From the sequence record NC_018087.3: a stretch of 64,000 nt of DNA. One strand, given 5' to 3'. Origin of the DNA: Acinetobacter phage ZZ1. The notes under the pieces were generated by a model. That model was not told where the DNA came from. It saw only the letters and a program-made list of their open reading frames with translations, and ran no database searches. Shown here piece after piece: positions 2,578 through 9,044 of this stretch; position 1 is the stretch's first letter, and every line of letters starts with the position of its first letter. The position numbers and the translations under genes are program-made.

Positions 2578-2904
2578 TTACATTGCAAGTAAAGTTACAG
2601 TAGCTTTACCATTTTCAAATTTAGATACTTCCATAATGAACTGTTCGCCGATGATTGATTTACATTCATATAAACCTTCACCTTTACGGATGTAGTTTAC
2701 ATTCCAGAATGCAATCATTGTATCATATTCTTCTTTAGAAGTTACATTAATTACAAAAGTAGACATACCTTTCTTATTAAAAACTTTCCAATCAATCTCA
2801 CCAATTTTACCTTCCATTTTGTTTAAAGTGAAAGATACATCAGAAAGAATAATGTTAGTCATTTTAATTTGAAAACGTTCTACTTTTTTAGTTAATGTAG
2901 CCAT
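2578..2904 (-). CDS. hypothetical protein
   Basis: 108-aa ORF, same strand and codon style as neighbours. A terminator hairpin lies just upstream at about 2981-3009. Confidence 0.5.
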   Translation of the reverse strand: MATLTKKVERFQIKMTNIILSDVSFTLNKMEGKIGEIDWKVFNKKGMSTFVINVTSKEEYDTMIAFWNVNYIRKGEGLYECKSIIGEQFIMEVSKFENGKATVTLLAM

Positions 2905-2980
2905 GATAATTTACTCAGTGTTTGTTCATTTGATGTAGTTATTATATAAGAATTTAATAAGCATGTAAACCCTTTAAATG

Positions 2981-3009
2981 AAAAAAGGTGCAAATAATGC
3001 ACCTTTTTA
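2981..3009 (-). terminator. rho-independent terminator (ggtgca-aataa-tgcacc hairpin plus T-run)
   Basis: aaaaaaggtgcaaataatgcacctttttatt. On the minus strand the hairpin is followed by TTTTT directly after the stop of the 3010..3639 gene. Confidence 0.6.
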
Positions 3010-3639
3010 TTAAAGTTTTAAAATAGTACCATATAAACGACGAACATATGTACGATAATCAACAAGAGTCTCTTCATCGACATAATATTGCGGAACATTT
3101 AACCAGTGTTCAGCACCCATATTATCAACAATATAAGGCACATTGAGTTGGTAATCATATTTGATATTATGAACATATCGACGACGTTGGCCGTCTGTAT
3201 AGTCTACAAGGATTTCAGCGCCAAGTAAAAATTTACAATCTCTAAAATATGGTGTTAGTTCAGGTCGTTCATATCTTTCATGTAAAACTACTTTTGCATT
3301 TACACCTTTTAAAACTAACATTTGACGACCATCATGTGGGTGTTCATCTACATAATAAGATTCGAGCCAACGATGTTCATTTGTAAATTCATCACCAAAA
3401 ATTAAATCCAACCAAGTTGTACCTGGGTTAAGTTTAACATTTGCACGAACGTTTACCGTAATAATATCAGTAAGATTATATTTATAATCAAGTTCAAAAA
3501 TTTGGCCGTCTTTATAATTATCTAAACGCATCCAACCCAAACCTACAATATTAAGTAGTGCAATATGAGTAAACTTTTCTGGGTTATAAACACCTGCATC
3601 CAAAATCAATTCACGTAAAGTATTCATATTAATCCTCAT
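3010..3639 (-). CDS. hypothetical protein (about 205 aa; true start probably the second ATG at 3627, preceded by TGAGGAT)
   Basis: ORF track 209 aa. The ATG at 3627 has a GAGGA Shine-Dalgarno; the first ATG has none. A weak HxD...H pattern (EHPHDG ... YVHNI) could fit a 2OG-Fe(II) oxygenase-like fold but is not convincing. Confidence 0.5.
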   Translation of the reverse strand: MRINMNTLRELILDAGVYNPEKFTHIALLNIVGLGWMRLDNYKDGQIFELDYKYNLTDIITVNVRANVKLNPGTTWLDLIFGDEFTNEHRWLESYYVDEHPHDGRQMLVLKGVNAKVVLHERYERPELTPYFRDCKFLLGAEILVDYTDGQRRRYVHNIKYDYQLNVPYIVDNMGAEHWLNVPQYYVDEETLVDYRTYVRRLYGTILKL

Positions 3640-3754
3640 TTAAATGCTTTTTAAACTTTTCTTTTCTGTCATATTTTGACTTGTCTTTTACAACCTGCAT
3701 CTTAAATGCAGGTGTTCTAACAGCTTTTGCAACTGGATTACGTTTATTTCTCAT
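3629..3754 (-). CDS. small highly basic protein (41 aa), below the ORF-track cutoff
   Basis: Manual translation gives MRNKRNPVAKAVRTPAFKMQVVKDKSKYDRKEKFKKHLNED. Its ATG (3754-3752) overlaps the TGA of the upstream gene (3753-3751) as ATGA. Its TAA sits beside the next gene start as TAATATG. Confidence 0.35.
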   Translation of the reverse strand: MRNKRNPVAKAVRTPAFKMQVVKDKSKYDRKEKFKKHLNED

Positions 3755-3990
3755 TTCTTCTCCTTGTATGATTGATACAATCGATATGGCGTCATGAGAC
3801 CAATAAGTAAATAAATTAGTAGATATACTAATGAAGAAAATAGCAATCCTATAACTGGCATTTGACCAATAAAATCGGTTTTGTTTGGACCGAATTTATG
3901 ATCATGATGACCTTCATTAACGTATCGATTCCAACTAAATGTACCTTTCAAATTTGTCTTAACAATTTTAATTAACTTTTTCATTTCCAT
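3751..3990 (-). CDS. small membrane protein (one transmembrane segment)
   Basis: 79 aa with hydrophobic stretch MPVIGLLFSSLVYLLIYLLIGLM. Confidence 0.45.
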   Translation of the reverse strand: MEMKKLIKIVKTNLKGTFSWNRYVNEGHHDHKFGPNKTDFIGQMPVIGLLFSSLVYLLIYLLIGLMTPYRLYQSYKEKK

Positions 3991-5249
3991 AACTCCAAAT
4001 ATTTGGTTTCTAAATCTTCTGGCACAAAGAAATGGCTTGCAAAAAATGCGTCCATACCTGTGACAAGATTTCGATCTTCACGAATAGACATACCACATGC
4101 TTTGTCACCAATAATCCATGAGCCAATGATCGGATAATATCCATCGTGCGGTTGAATTTCATGCCATTGTTGGTACATATAGCCCCAATGATCATATTCA
4201 GGTACTTTGTGAGAACCCGGAGCCAAATGACTAAGCTCTTCGCCAGAACAAAAATGCGAACGATAGATGTTTGAACCTTCGCGGCCATGAATTGCTTTCT
4301 TAGCATATTGACCCGATTTTGGATGATGATTCCCATCAAAACTCGCCAATAAATTAGGGTGATTAGGGAACATTTCCCATAACTTAATAAGCATTGCTTT
4401 GTTTGAAAGCAGCATTTTCCATGCGGGTTCCATCCAACGAGTGTTAGTACAGTCAAGAATGTCAGAACCAAATTTCTCTTCAGTCATCCATTCCCAAGGA
4501 TAAAGTTTAAAACAATTTTTGATCTCTTGGTCTTGAAGATCGATAAACGATTTAGTTTCAGGGCCTGTGCCAATACGTTCTTTCAAAAGACCAATATCTT
4601 GCATTTGCAATTCTTTAACAGATAAACCAGCACGAAGTGCAGAATCCATCAAATAAACTAAATTACCAAAGTCTTCATGACGGAATCCACCGCTTGATGC
4701 AAAATGAACTAATTCGCCTGGTTTAAATCGTTCCTGCCAAACTTCTTGAAGAGTTTCATCAATAAGATTATATTGAATACGCAGATCATCTGGATAATCA
4801 CGACCGTCTGGTAATTTTTGCATACTTTCAATATAATTCCATTGTGCTACAGAACATTCAAGAATTGAAACTGGAGTGTCGCCATTATACTCAAACATTT
4901 TTAATGAGTCATCAGAGCCAAAAGCAAGATCGAAACGTCCATATAATGATTTATCACCACGATTCCAAGATTGTTCAATTAAAGGAATCGAATTTTCATC
5001 CAAATTGAAGTACTCAGGATAATCACCAGATTTGATCATTTGTTCTACCATTGCATAAGACATATCGTGTAAGTCTTGTGATGCAGCTTGAATACGGTCA
5101 ATTTCACTTTCTGACATTCCATATACAACGCCTTCTTGCCAATATGGTGCAGCATCAGGTCCAGAAGGGGCATTCCAATAATTGAAGCCAATTCCCTCTA
5201 AAAGTTCAATGTGATTAGGACGGATTTCGAAATTGCTATGGCGTTTCAT
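3981..5249 (-). CDS. glutathionylspermidine synthetase-like (GspS/YgiC/YjfC family) ATP-grasp protein
   Basis: 422 aa. The motifs RFDLAFGSDD...FEYNGDTP and the overall length are characteristic of the stand-alone synthetase (pre-ATP-grasp plus ATP-grasp) family. Confidence 0.55.
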   Translation of the reverse strand: MKRHSNFEIRPNHIELLEGIGFNYWNAPSGPDAAPYWQEGVVYGMSESEIDRIQAASQDLHDMSYAMVEQMIKSGDYPEYFNLDENSIPLIEQSWNRGDKSLYGRFDLAFGSDDSLKMFEYNGDTPVSILECSVAQWNYIESMQKLPDGRDYPDDLRIQYNLIDETLQEVWQERFKPGELVHFASSGGFRHEDFGNLVYLMDSALRAGLSVKELQMQDIGLLKERIGTGPETKSFIDLQDQEIKNCFKLYPWEWMTEEKFGSDILDCTNTRWMEPAWKMLLSNKAMLIKLWEMFPNHPNLLASFDGNHHPKSGQYAKKAIHGREGSNIYRSHFCSGEELSHLAPGSHKVPEYDHWGYMYQQWHEIQPHDGYYPIIGSWIIGDKACGMSIREDRNLVTGMDAFFASHFFVPEDLETKYLELWK

Positions 5250-5311: not shown

Positions 5312-5596
5312 TTATCTAAATTTAGTGTATTCACATCGATGTTGTGGGATTTTCATATAACGATCGGCTAATGTTAAATTAACATATGTACCATCGGAAT
5401 ACCATGTAATAGAACTATCATTACCTGTATACGTGACAATCGAATCACCCGAAAGTGATAAACACTTAAGCGTAACTGTACCGGCAGGTGTATATTCTTG
5501 ATTTGCTTTTGGGTGTTGCATTACAAAAATACTTAATGCAATAATAATTCCAATAATTAAACAGAATATCATTTGACCATTATTTAATTTATTCAT
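5312..5596 (-). CDS. hypothetical exported/membrane-anchored protein
   Basis: 94 aa; N-terminal hydrophobic segment MIFCLIIGIIIALSIFV. Confidence 0.45.
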   Translation of the reverse strand: MNKLNNGQMIFCLIIGIIIALSIFVMQHPKANQEYTPAGTVTLKCLSLSGDSIVTYTGNDSSITWYSDGTYVNLTLADRYMKIPQHRCEYTKFR

Positions 5597-5606
5597 AAAA
5601 ACTCCA

Positions 5607-5625
5607 AAGGGCCGAAGCCCTTAAT
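5607..5625 (-). terminator. rho-independent terminator (aagggc-cgaa-gccctt)
   Basis: Hairpin at 5607-5622 followed on the minus strand by a T-run, directly after the stop at 5628. Confidence 0.55.
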
Positions 5626-5627
5626 TA

Positions 5628-6149
5628 TTAACCACCTGAAGATACTGCACCACCGAAACCACCACGAGAAGTTGACGTACTACGAGACACTGCAGCGGCT
5701 TTAGTTGAAACCGCACGTGATTCGGTTGCTCGATATGAATTTAACGTGTTTCGAGCCGGCGGAACATATGCACTTGATCCCATTGCTTGTTGACGAGATT
5801 TAAATGAATTATATGACCCATTAGACATCATATTGCCGAGCATCATGCCCATTGCGCCAGCCATCATCATATCCATACCACTAAATCCTGAATTTGATGC
5901 AGCTTGTGTTGCTGCTGCAGGATCAGTTTTATGTAATTCAAGTAATTTTACCCAATCTTCGTATGTGCCGGTATAACCTTTAGCTTTGGCCTCTTCATAT
6001 GATTTGCTTAAAGTATCAGCGACTTGAACAAATGCACCTTCAGGAGTTTGCGCTACATTTGATGCAACAGCAACAGAATCATCTTTGGCACAGCCTGCTA
6101 ATACAAAGGCAGGTACCATCAACATTACAATAGATTTTTTCAGTTTCAT
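5628..6149 (-). CDS. putative lipoprotein with Met/Gly-rich region
   Basis: 173 aa. Signal peptide plus lipobox (VLAGC). Carries the segment MDMMMAGAMGMMLGNMMSNGS. Confidence 0.55.
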   Translation of the reverse strand: MKLKKSIVMLMVPAFVLAGCAKDDSVAVASNVAQTPEGAFVQVADTLSKSYEEAKAKGYTGTYEDWVKLLELHKTDPAAATQAASNSGFSGMDMMMAGAMGMMLGNMMSNGSYNSFKSRQQAMGSSAYVPPARNTLNSYRATESRAVSTKAAAVSRSTSTSRGGFGGAVSSGG

Positions 6150-6156
6150 TTTTCAC

Positions 6157-6498
6157 CTAGATATCAATAGAAGAGAATTGTGCAATAATAGTCAAACCTA
6201 CTGAAATGAAGATAAGACCGACCCATGCACCAAGGTCTAAATTTTGATTAAGCATTATTTTTGCAAGAAATGCAGTAGCAACGGCACCAAGGCCTGACCA
6301 CATAACATACAATATACCAGCTTGCATATATTTTAATGCGATAACACAAGCAATAAATGATCCAGTATATAATATTGCACCAATTATAAGAGGTCCAATA
6401 TTATTAAAACCGTCTGCCTTTGCCATATAAATGGTTGATATTACATCAGTGGCTATTGCTACCAATAGCCACATTACACCTATTTGACTAGATGTCAT
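6157..6498 (-). CDS. small multidrug resistance (SMR/EmrE/SugE-like) family membrane protein
   Basis: 113 aa with four predicted TM helices. TM1 motif IATDVISTIYMAKADGF aligns to EmrE ILAEVIGTTLMKFSEGF, with Asp in place of Glu14. TM3 motif YVMWSGLGAV matches EmrE YAIWSGVGIV. ATGA overlap with the upstream gene. Confidence 0.6.
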   Translation of the reverse strand: MTSSQIGVMWLLVAIATDVISTIYMAKADGFNNIGPLIIGAILYTGSFIACVIALKYMQAGILYVMWSGLGAVATAFLAKIMLNQNLDLGAWVGLIFISVGLTIIAQFSSIDI

Positions 6499-6851
6499 TT
6501 GAATTCACCCAAAACATTATATGCCTTTTTAAGCCATTCATCACGAGTCAAATAAGGGCCAATATCCGATGTAAATAACTTGATGACTTTCCATGTACGT
6601 TCAGTATAACGAGAGTATGACCAATCAGCAAATAATCCAATCCCTGATTCATCCATATCTGGTTTTTTAATACCAAAAATACGACGAATAGTTCGGGATT
6701 CAGATACATCACCCCACTCGTCAGTAGACCATCCAAATGTTTTGCCGATAACACATGTTTTATATTCACCCATACTAAATTCAGTATCTTGAGGTAATTG
6801 TTCAACAGCTTCAATAGCACGGATAAGGCCGTTAATTAAATTAACTTTCAT
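6495..6851 (-). CDS. hypothetical protein
   Basis: 118 aa. Translationally coupled (ATGA) to the SMR gene. Confidence 0.5.
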   Translation of the reverse strand: MKVNLINGLIRAIEAVEQLPQDTEFSMGEYKTCVIGKTFGWSTDEWGDVSESRTIRRIFGIKKPDMDESGIGLFADWSYSRYTERTWKVIKLFTSDIGPYLTRDEWLKKAYNVLGEFK

Positions 6852-6898
6852 TTTGATTTGCTCATGTTATTTGGTATGTTCATATAATAATAAAAAAT

Positions 6899-6920
6899 CC
6901 AGGCTATGTACATAGCCTGG
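6899..6920 (-). terminator. palindromic terminator hairpin CCAGGCTATGTACATAGCCTGG (member of a repeated hairpin family)
   Basis: Perfect 22-nt palindrome, flanked by A6 upstream and T-run downstream on the minus strand, directly after the rnlB stop at 6936. Confidence 0.65.
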
Positions 6921-6935
6921 ACAAAAATATTTTAA

Positions 6936-7991: not shown

Positions 7992-8369
7992 TTAAATGTC
8001 GCTTTCTACAATACCAAAAATTACACTGGTATCCACATCTTCAAGTTTATGGATGATAATTCTAAGGCCTTTAACAATTCCGGTAATTTGGTTAAAATCA
8101 CCATCTGATAAGGTTTTAAAGGCATCTTGACCACCATAATGTACAATGAAAGGGTCGTCTAATTGAATATAATGAGTTTTTAATGGATTTTTTGCGTATC
8201 GTTTAATACTTTCCAAATCGTATGATAGATTCAGTTTTAATAAATCGTTATATTTTGGAAAGCGTTTAAGAGCTTTAATAATTAATGATCGATCTTTAGG
8301 GTCCGCCAGTTTAATGGCATCATTAAAAGACTTAATGAATGTATTATAAACATCTGGAGTGAGAAGCAT
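7992..8369 (-). CDS. hypothetical protein (paralogous to 8580..9044)
   Basis: 125 aa. Shares the N-terminal motif YNxxIKxFNDAI with the 154-aa ORF two genes upstream. Confidence 0.5.
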   Translation of the reverse strand: MLLTPDVYNTFIKSFNDAIKLADPKDRSLIIKALKRFPKYNDLLKLNLSYDLESIKRYAKNPLKTHYIQLDDPFIVHYGGQDAFKTLSDGDFNQITGIVKGLRIIIHKLEDVDTSVIFGIVESDI

Positions 8370-8370
8370 T

Positions 8371-8604
8371 TTATTTTCCTTTACTTAAATTTGCCCGAAC
8401 AAAACAGTCTTTTGCTTCTAATAACTTACGCAACCCCGTCTGTGTTTCTTCACATGCGGGCAAAGATAAAACCATTTTTGCAGCAAGATCGCCTATACCT
8501 TTAGATACTTCTTGTAAGTGTGGTGGCAAATGGTCATATGCAAAATACTGTAAAATTGGATAAGAATTTGCATAGAGTGTTAATTTCTCATTAGATTCAG
8601 ACAT
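8371..8604 (-). CDS. hypothetical protein
   Basis: 77-aa ORF. Confidence 0.4.
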   Translation of the reverse strand: MSESNEKLTLYANSYPILQYFAYDHLPPHLQEVSKGIGDLAAKMVLSLPACEETQTGLRKLLEAKDCFVRANLSKGK

Positions 8605-9044
8605 TTTTCGCCTCCAGGTTTTTGTGGTTTTGGCGTACCGCGCACAACTAATCCAATTACTGGTGTATTAGCATTAGTTGTTACATTGATACCTCGGGTA
8701 AAACGAATACAATAAACAACTTCAGCATCTAATATATTTGCAACACTATCACTACCTGTCGTTAAACTACCCATCCAGCTTTTAACCGAAACAAATTCGC
8801 CCATGTCATTTACATATGTTGGGTCATCAACAAATTTAATGCCTGACGCTTTTAATTCAGCATATTTTGGAAATTCATTACGCATCTTAATAATCTGGTC
8901 TTTAAATTGACCCAAGTATTGATCATAGACTTTTTTACCGTCTCCAAACGTAATATAGCCGTTAATAGCATCATTAAATGTTTTAATGAGATTATTGTAA
9001 ATTTCGGCATTTAAAGGTACTGCACGTTTTACTACTTTAACCAT
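8580..9044 (-). CDS. hypothetical protein (paralogous to 7992..8369)
   Basis: 154 aa. EIYNNLIKTFNDAINGY versus DVYNTFIKSFNDAIKLA in the paralog. Confidence 0.5.
   Translation of the reverse strand: MVKVVKRAVPLNAEIYNNLIKTFNDAINGYITFGDGKKVYDQYLGQFKDQIIKMRNEFPKYAELKASGIKFVDDPTYVNDMGEFVSVKSWMGSLTTGSDSVANILDAEVVYCIRFTRGINVTTNANTPVIGLVVRGTPKPQKPGGEKCLNLMRN

Follow-up and report, generated by a model that had tools for sequence, protein, structure and literature searches.

The genome of Acinetobacter phage ZZ1 [NC_018087.3] encodes a membrane protein of the SMR (small multidrug resistance) family in which aspartate replaces the central glutamate that defines the family. The stretch analysed here, the window, is 64,000 nt of that genome. 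The protein belongs to a clade, the Asp-SMRs, that has been found only in the Moraxellaceae (Acinetobacter and Moraxella) and in their phages, plasmids and other accessory elements. Asp occupies the central position of the first transmembrane helix (TM1) in all 78 of the full-length clade members aligned. The gene is linked to genes for a YgiB-like lipoprotein and a YgiC-type ligase, and a functional tie of the Asp-SMR to these two genes is very probable. Tentatively, we suggest that the protein moves a polyamine-type cation for them. The gene and its central codon are located as follows:

6157–6498, minus strand: Asp-type SMR gene; 113-aa product starting MTSSQIGVMW, four transmembrane helices
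6445–6447, minus strand: codon 18, GAT (Asp), aligned to the central Glu14 of EmrE

That the product of the phage gene is an SMR transporter is close to certain. It scores 51.3 bits on the Pfam SMR profile PF00893 (gathering score 23.7) and covers positions 4–93 of the 93 in the profile. A phmmer search of all PDB chains aligned residues 10–108 with residues 6–104 of EmrE, the nearest solved structure at about 35% identity, without a gap (E = 3e-11). This alignment places D18 at EmrE E14 and, in the third helix (TM3), YVMWSGLGAV at YAIWSGVGIV. An earlier reading of the letters of the window, the sequence-only reading, had claimed an EmrE-like family member with these same correspondences and with four membrane spans, and each of these claims was reproduced. 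The hydropathy profile of the 113-residue protein has four hydrophobic peaks, and an AlphaFold model with 29 homologues as input (pLDDT 86) has helices at residues 3–27, 34–57, 61–82 and 89–108. The best Foldseek matches of the predicted structure in the PDB are EmrE (TM-score 0.75) and Gdx-Clo (0.70); phmmer matches Gdx-Clo at E = 0.02 only. The Tyr switch Y64, W67, the G69/G71 fulcrum and the G94/G101 motif of TM4 are invariant or nearly so in the clade.

A profile search of all six-frame open reading frames (ORFs) of the window found one SMR gene only, and a heterodimer with a second SMR gene was dropped for this reason. The Lys/Arg bias of the protein, a sequence proxy for topology, is -1 (K56 versus K27 and K80, with no other Lys or Arg). 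Singleton SMRs of dual topology have a bias within +/-2, and the polyamine SMRs, MdtIJ, are always encoded by paired genes (PMC9574504). The singleton gene and the bias of -1 therefore fit the dual-topology singleton class, unlike the always-paired MdtIJ.

The C-terminal tail has a motif, (Q/K)(F/Y)S(N/S)I(D/E)(V/I), that is common to phage and host copies (6157–6171 in the window, residues 109–113). An acidic residue two positions before the end of the protein is conserved clade-wide, in phage and host. The C-terminal tail of EmrE is thought to affect proton release. The chromosomal Asp-SMR of A. baumannii AP022077 (L001:8001-9356) is 136 aa long and has lost the conserved SNIDV motif; an IS-type transposase gene (rve/HTH) overlaps the 3' end of its gene and accounts for the foreign C-terminus.

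To which of the described SMR subtypes does the protein belong? A search against models of the SMR subfamilies, the check that the sequence-only reading had proposed, kept it inside the SMR fold and below every curated Qac, EmrE, Gdx and MdtI/J threshold. With the NCBIfam models it scores 54.1 bits against a cutoff of 188 for SMR_qac_int (Qac), 52 against 162 for the EmrE subfamily, 37.9 against 185 for QacE, 48.6 against 103 for MdtI, 26.5 against 126 for SugE (Gdx) and 23.1 against 122 for MdtJ. The Qac and EmrE scores are thus less than one third of the curated cutoffs. The Pfam EamA score is 19 bits (gathering score 28). In the ArnE/ArnF lipid-flippase subtype the central Glu is often Asn and the gene lies in a lipid A modification operon (PMC9574504); the protein does not fit this subtype, as the Asp carboxylate is kept and there are no arn genes nearby. 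Nor does it fit the MdtJI subtype, given the singleton gene and the missed MdtI and MdtJ cutoffs. Neither a guanidine riboswitch nor any other Rfam family was detected in the window, and the riboswitch was likewise missing beside the SMR gene in eight host loci. The review of the superfamily describes no Asp subtype (PMC9574504). Since the central Glu is replaced, by a carboxylate whose side chain is one methylene shorter, and all subtype thresholds fail, the protein would be filed by its sequence in the SMR superfamily, outside the four described subtypes. Its annotation as QacE, a disinfectant-resistance protein, is probably wrong.

The Asp substitution itself is real, but it is not peculiar to one phage. 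Of the 78 aligned members, 41 are chromosomal copies from Moraxellaceae and the others come from T4-type Acinetobacter phages, further phage-like contigs and two megaplasmids. Monophyly of the clade was recovered in 297 of 300 bootstrap replicates. Among 141 aligned Glu-type relatives, 97% have Glu at the central site. Of the 47 relatives retrieved from 5.8 billion proteins, all of those with an intact TM1 have Asp, in the motif AIxxDV(L/I)ST. The exceptions are P0045, a singleton with an internal deletion, and P0043, a fragment with a scrambled N-terminus. Scanning one genome per species gave 43 chromosomal loci, all in Acinetobacter or Moraxella and with Asp in every intact copy, together with one fragment of 394 bases assigned to Vogesella. 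When 1.84 billion representatives were searched exhaustively, the scores fell sharply after a few clade members, to 66 bits or less, with identity of 40% or less. The 143 top-ranking relatives that cover the site include 131 with Glu, eight with Asp (four of these being clade members) and four with Gly.

Both GAT and GAC are used for the central Asp, from which Glu is a single third-position change away. The ratio of nonsynonymous to synonymous divergence (dN/dS) between phage genera is 0.08–0.13, with dS > 1.4, so that synonymous sites are saturated. Taken together, the use of both codons, the nearness of Glu and the low dN/dS at saturated dS argue that Asp is actively kept against Glu. The clade also has a signature that is rare in the 141 Glu-type relatives: G17S, K22A/F23K, P55Q, T56A, A59L, A61V and I62L in EmrE numbering. 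Residues A10, I11, T18, Y40, F44, Y60, W63, G65/G67, G90/G97 and S105 (same numbering) are kept. The signature is that of a co-evolved pocket around the invariant Asp, in which the bulkier residues of A59L and A61V and the Ser one turn past the Asp would reshape the space round the shorter carboxylate.

Asp has also been found at this site in an unrelated SMR. The metagenomic SMR P0076 (L068:344-1025) has a central Asp and is one half of an adjacent SMR pair; its partner has Glu (IVTEVIGT), and the two look like a natural Asp/Glu heterodimer. The contigs of P0054, another Asp-bearing SMR, are 1 kb or less, and P0054 and P0076 are uninformative on the gene module described below.

In all of the phage, plasmid and other accessory-element copies examined, and in three chromosomal lineages, the Asp-SMR gene is followed by the gene for a YgiB-like lipoprotein and then by that for a YgiC-type ligase. 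Four genera of the Twarogvirinae (ZZ1/Henu6-type, Lazarus-type, Acj61 and Acj9) have the module in this order. Their full gene order is rnlB, a variable ORF, the SMR gene, a lipoprotein of about 175 aa, one or more small membrane proteins, the GSP_synth ligase, small ORFs and rIIA. The same order of SMR, lipoprotein and ligase is present on T4-like metagenomic contigs (L051-L053), in three other phage-like lineages (L064-L067, one contig being of 274 kb with NAD-salvage genes), on L050 and L057 (a viral-bin contig of 381 kb), and on two megaplasmids from Acinetobacter, one of 275 kb and one of 395 kb. The chromosomes of A. rudis (L012), an Acinetobacter metagenome-assembled genome (MAG; L035) and a Moraxella MAG (L038) have the module as a compact operon with ordinary flanking genes. 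P0050, which at 48% identity to the phage protein is the clade's most divergent member, occurs in some strains of A. baumannii and is on an A. baumannii contig, again with the module in the same order.

At this last locus, A. baumannii LYKQ01000001 (L071:5001-7654), the P0050 gene is followed by a gene for a 363-aa protein without a Pfam match and then by the GSP_synth gene. The locus is near a Toprim/topoisomerase gene and is likely an accessory element.

In the window the two partner genes lie past the SMR gene:

5628–6149, minus strand: YgiB-like (DUF1190) lipoprotein, 173 aa, lipobox VLAGC, start 7 nt past the SMR stop
3981–5249, minus strand: YgiC-type ATP-grasp acid-amine (peptide-polyamine) ligase, 422 aa, Pfam GSP_synth 359 bits

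Both had been noticed in the sequence-only reading, the one as a Met-rich lipoprotein and the other as a gene like that of glutathionylspermidine synthetase (GspS), and both descriptions hold, with the ligase closer to YgiC than to GspS. The middle of the lipoprotein is Met-rich with a Gly zipper, and its tail is rich in Ser and Gly. Its PF06693 (DUF1190) score is 18.2 bits, below the gathering score of 22; DUF1190 is matched by 16 of the 17 members of its family at E <= 0.01, the best at 3.5e-6. Compared with the PDB, the ligase matches YgiC over its full length at E = 1.7e-68 and YjfC at 2.9e-55, versus a partial match to the true E. coli GspS at 1.1e-12. These far stronger matches make it a YgiC-type ligase. 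YgiC and YjfC have been reported as peptide-spermidine ligases, and E. coli ygiB-ygiC as co-transcribed with the efflux channel gene tolC (PMC11762307; PMC12568646). The YgiB/YgiC pair therefore has a transport component linked to it in two arrangements that are unrelated, with tolC in E. coli and with the Asp-SMR in the Moraxellaceae.

What might the Asp-SMR do for this pair? We are inclined, with some hesitation, towards a dual-topology SMR homodimer that moves a polyamine-type cation for a host-derived YgiB/YgiC module. The SMR would be the first gene of that module, ahead of the YgiB-family lipoprotein, the small membrane protein or proteins and the YgiC-type ligase, and its product would assemble in the inner membrane as an antiparallel homodimer of dual topology. 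A small cation of polyamine type, whether a polyamine itself or a peptidyl-polyamine amide made by the ligase, would bind to its two Asp carboxylates and be carried over the inner membrane, probably in exchange for protons. The lipoprotein would act on the periplasmic side. A polyamine derivative had been guessed at in the sequence-only reading from the GspS-like gene; the guess is backed by the conserved linkage, and a substrate of polyamine type is a tentative suggestion. The direction of transport would be outward, which is a more doubtful part of the proposal.

Several points weigh against it. Its support comes from sequence, fold and linkage, and the physiological substrates of YgiC are reported as not established (PMC11762307). 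In EmrE the E14D mutation lowers the pKa of the carboxyl group to about 5–6.7, abolishes drug resistance in cells and gives slow transport in liposomes (PMC4664823). By analogy, the Asp-type SMRs may be weakly coupled or uncoupled, and may even run inward. MdtIJ, the SMRs known for polyamines, come from a gene pair and have Glu, and the phage SMR differs from them in both respects (PMC9574504). The linkage also has its exceptions. At 35 of about 40 Moraxellaceae chromosomal loci the Asp-SMR gene stands after cysI and DUF934 and there is no ligase within 6 kb, so the Asp-SMR can work without an adjacent ligase. Phage Ac42 (L061:2097-4739) keeps a YgiC-like ligase between rnlB and rIIA with no SMR there, and Aeromonas T4-like phages have DUF1190 and YgiC-like genes and no SMR.

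These other arrangements have features of their own. In most Acinetobacter chromosomes, at the 35 loci (L002-L034, e.g. L001:5798-8411), the SMR gene directly follows cysI (NIR_SIR, sulfite/nitrite reductase) and DUF934; all are read from one strand, and the gap is about 80 nt. A functional tie to sulfite reduction was set aside, as the cysI synteny is all from one bacterial family and the mobile copies are never with cysI; we treat this order as inherited synteny. The Asp-SMR gene stands alone at three Moraxella loci and in A. qingfengensis. In Ac42 three ORFs lie 5' of the ligase gene (109, 138 and 142 aa); they have no Pfam match and none is an SMR, and the SMR and the lipoprotein look to have been lost or replaced. 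Aeromonas phage 44RR2.8t.2 (L062:690-4191) has an SPFH/Band-7 gene together with a DUF1190 lipoprotein that scores 77.5 bits, a pair of small ORFs and a YgiC-like ligase, and the ligase is present in about 40 Aeromonas phage records. By itself, the YgiB-YgiC pair looks like an accessory module that recurs among T4-type phages.

Is the Asp-SMR instead a proton-coupled exporter of quaternary ammonium and hydrophobic cations of the Qac/EmrE type, carried as a resistance-type accessory gene? Qac and EmrE are its top-scoring curated models, EmrE is the nearest solved structure at 35% identity, the aromatic residues of the binding site (Y40, F44, Y60 and W63) are retained, and the label in PHROG 1395 and GenBank is QacE. 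Yet the scores (54 versus 188 and 52 versus 162 bits) are far under the curated cutoffs, the neighbours of the binding site are remodelled (G17S, A59L, A61V), and the change of Glu to Asp abolishes drug resistance in cells when it is made in EmrE (PMC4664823). Integron or resistance cassettes are never beside the Asp-SMR genes here, which have a core chromosomal place or stand with YgiB/YgiC instead, and antiseptic efflux would be of little gain to a strictly lytic phage. We regard an exporter of this kind as rather improbable. Export of guanidinium in the manner of Gdx/SugE, another suggestion of the sequence-only reading, fares worse and would be very surprising. The fold is that of an SMR, with a TM-score of 0.70 to Gdx-Clo, and guanidinium export is widespread among SMRs (PMC9574504), but the SugE score of 26.5 against 126 bits is well under those of the Qac and MdtI models, Gdx-Clo is matched by phmmer at E = 0.02 only, and the guanidine riboswitch was found neither in the window nor beside the SMR gene in the eight host loci.

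Or, is the protein a cation facilitator that is weakly coupled or uncoupled? This rival is a serious one because E14D uncouples EmrE, although on balance it seems unlikely. A low-pKa Asp pair would be mostly deprotonated, and the inside-negative membrane potential would drive the uptake of a polyamine-type cation that feeds the YgiC-type ligase; a controlled leak of cations or protons is the other form it might take. Linkage to a cytoplasmic polyamine-consuming ligase fits supply as well as export. However, the local setting, such as the clade-specific Ser one turn past the Asp, could raise the pKa of the Asp, and every characterised cation-transporting SMR subtype is an exporter (PMC9574504). 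The periplasmic lipoprotein partner and the tolC-ygiBC linkage of E. coli (PMC11762307) also point outward. A role without transport has been considered too, whether as a holin or antiholin, a modulator of membrane potential, a superinfection exclusion protein or a poison subunit that pairs with the host Asp-SMR. The gene does lie in the variable early region, from rIIA to topoisomerase, where T4-type phages keep membrane and exclusion functions, and mixed phage-host dimers would be conceivable at 55–62% identity. Such repurposing is nonetheless quite improbable: all of the mechanistic SMR residues are invariant, purifying selection is strong both in phages and in hosts, nothing holin-like was found, and the three-gene module is also present on chromosomes and plasmids, where lysis or exclusion makes no sense. 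The role in lysis timing put forward in the sequence-only reading is disfavoured on the same grounds.

The proposal of a homodimer that moves a polyamine-type cation can be taken one step further. The Asp-SMRs could make up a fifth functional subtype of SMR and serve as the dedicated inner-membrane transporter in a YgiB/YgiC pathway for making and exporting a peptidyl- or acyl-polyamine; this is possible, and we put it forward with considerable doubt. If it is true, the product in Acinetobacter could be built on 1,3-diaminopropane, and large lytic phages would carry the pathway complete, so as to reset the infected cell's polyamine pool or its envelope. The Moraxellaceae module would then explain the co-transcription of E. 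coli ygiB-ygiC with tolC, and it would offer a tractable three-gene system for finding the physiological product of YgiC.

In the SMR subtypes that transport cations, the central Glu has been described as conserved and essential. The natural clade with Asp fixed at this site, along with compensating neighbours, is a ready-made test of how side-chain length and pKa bear on coupling and selectivity in the smallest known transporters. Through the linkage to YgiB/YgiC, two orphan proteins encoded in the tolC operon of E. coli become open to testing. Dozens of genomes of therapeutic-candidate Acinetobacter phages label the gene as quaternary-ammonium resistance, so that its correct naming bears on the safety screens of phage therapy. 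The presence of an SMR gene in Acinetobacter phages is already recorded in databases. In the literature searched we found no description of the invariant Asp, the signature, the restriction to Moraxellaceae and mobile elements or the linkage to YgiB/YgiC, and no mention of the Acinetobacter phage "quaternary ammonium compound-resistance protein" or of an Asp subtype of SMR.

Henu6 and vB_AbaSt_W16, two T4-type phages of Acinetobacter, are 99% identical to the window. About 55 Acinetobacter entries in the phage collection carry the gene, annotated "QacE", the name also given in GenBank records and in PHROG 1395 (phrog_1395). The gene is standard equipment of Acinetobacter T4-type phages and not, as the sequence-only reading had it, an unusual cargo for a lytic phage of this type. 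A scan of IMG/VR gave four loci only, three of which are known isolates. Phage and host copies of the Asp-SMR are 55–62% identical. Because the same three-gene order is present in compact chromosomal operons and on plasmids, the phage has taken over a pre-existing bacterial module. A single capture by the phage lineage, at which a neighbour-joining tree hinted, is not claimed: the T4-like phage copies are monophyletic in only 110 of 300 bootstrap replicates and the L051 copy falls outside the group.

The block that contains the module is bounded by rIIA (1–2205) and a topoisomerase gene and forms a variable early region. Its other features in the window are these:

6495–6851, minus strand: upstream ORF118, 118 aa, phrog_21305; its stop overlaps the SMR start (4-nt ATGA)
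5312–5596, minus strand: small membrane-anchored protein, 94 aa, phrog_20143, in the phage version of the module only
3751–3990, minus strand: small membrane protein, 79 aa, overlaps the ligase gene at its end; also kept in Lazarus, L051 and L052
6897–6922, minus strand: terminator-like hairpin with a T-run, after rnlB; consensus match only
6912–6884, minus strand: promoter-like site ahead of ORF118, overlapped by the hairpin at 6897–6922; consensus match only
5607–5622, minus strand: GC-rich terminator-like hairpin past the lipoprotein gene, with a UUCG loop and a T-run; consensus match only

The 4-nt overlap of ORF118 and the SMR gene, reported in the sequence-only reading as translational coupling, is real in the window but is not kept in the other genera, where Lazarus has a 25-nt overlap and Acj9 and Acj61 have gaps of about 77–82 nt. 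ORF118 itself is conserved only in the Lazarus-type and ZZ1-type phages and not in Acj9 or Acj61. The phrog_20143 protein is present in Lazarus, Acj61 and Acj9 and absent from the chromosomal versions of the module. Several GenBank records name it "putative membrane-bound inhibitor of lysozyme", a name for which searches of Pfam and NCBIfam gave no support. The two hairpins bracket ORF118, the SMR gene and the lipoprotein gene, which may possibly form a transcription unit.

Compared with Lazarus-type phages, the window has two extra ORFs, of 209 aa (3010–3639) and 108 aa (2578–2904), neither with a Pfam match. They are inserted (region 2578–3639) between a 41-aa DUF7230 gene (3629–3754) and an rIIA.1-like gene (2359–2565). 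On two of the T4-like metagenomic contigs a gene of the Acb2/Tad1-hairpin family (PF24729, an anti-defence sponge family) lies just 5' of rnlB (L051:663-887 and L052:4203-4427). Three small ORFs at the matching place in the window (7992–9044) have no Pfam match.

How does the phage SMR compare with the systems already known? It is like EmrE and the Qac proteins in length, in its four helices, fold and gap-free alignment, in being a singleton and in its near-neutral Lys/Arg bias. It differs from them in having Asp for Glu14 together with the clade-specific G17S, P55Q, A59L and A61V, and in its context, which is YgiB/YgiC or cysI-DUF934 instead of resistance cassettes. The E14D laboratory mutant of EmrE has the same change at the lone membrane-embedded carboxylate. 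That mutant is a crippled transporter with reduced rates (PMC4664823), whereas the natural clade holds Asp under strong selection with compensating neighbours, and in it Asp is presumably the working state.

The likeness to MdtJI lies in the tie to polyamine metabolism and in the MdtI model, which scores nearly as high as the Qac models. MdtI and MdtJ have been implicated in the export of spermidine and putrescine, but they are an adjacent pair that forms a heterodimer of fixed topology with a central Glu (PMC9574504), and the phage SMR is a singleton with Asp. Other phage-borne SMRs, such as those like emrE in lambdoid E. coli phages and the qac genes in records of P1-like and Listeria phages, are relatives by phrog_1395 or tblastn; they have only about 27–35% identity, are not from T4-type phages and have no YgiB/YgiC neighbours. 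The E. coli operons tolC-ygiB-ygiC and yjfM-yjfC share with the phage module a DUF1190 lipoprotein and a YgiC/YjfC ligase, and the transport link is TolC in E. coli and the Asp-SMR in the Moraxellaceae. They have no SMR; the phage version adds small membrane proteins, and the lipoproteins of Acinetobacter are divergent.

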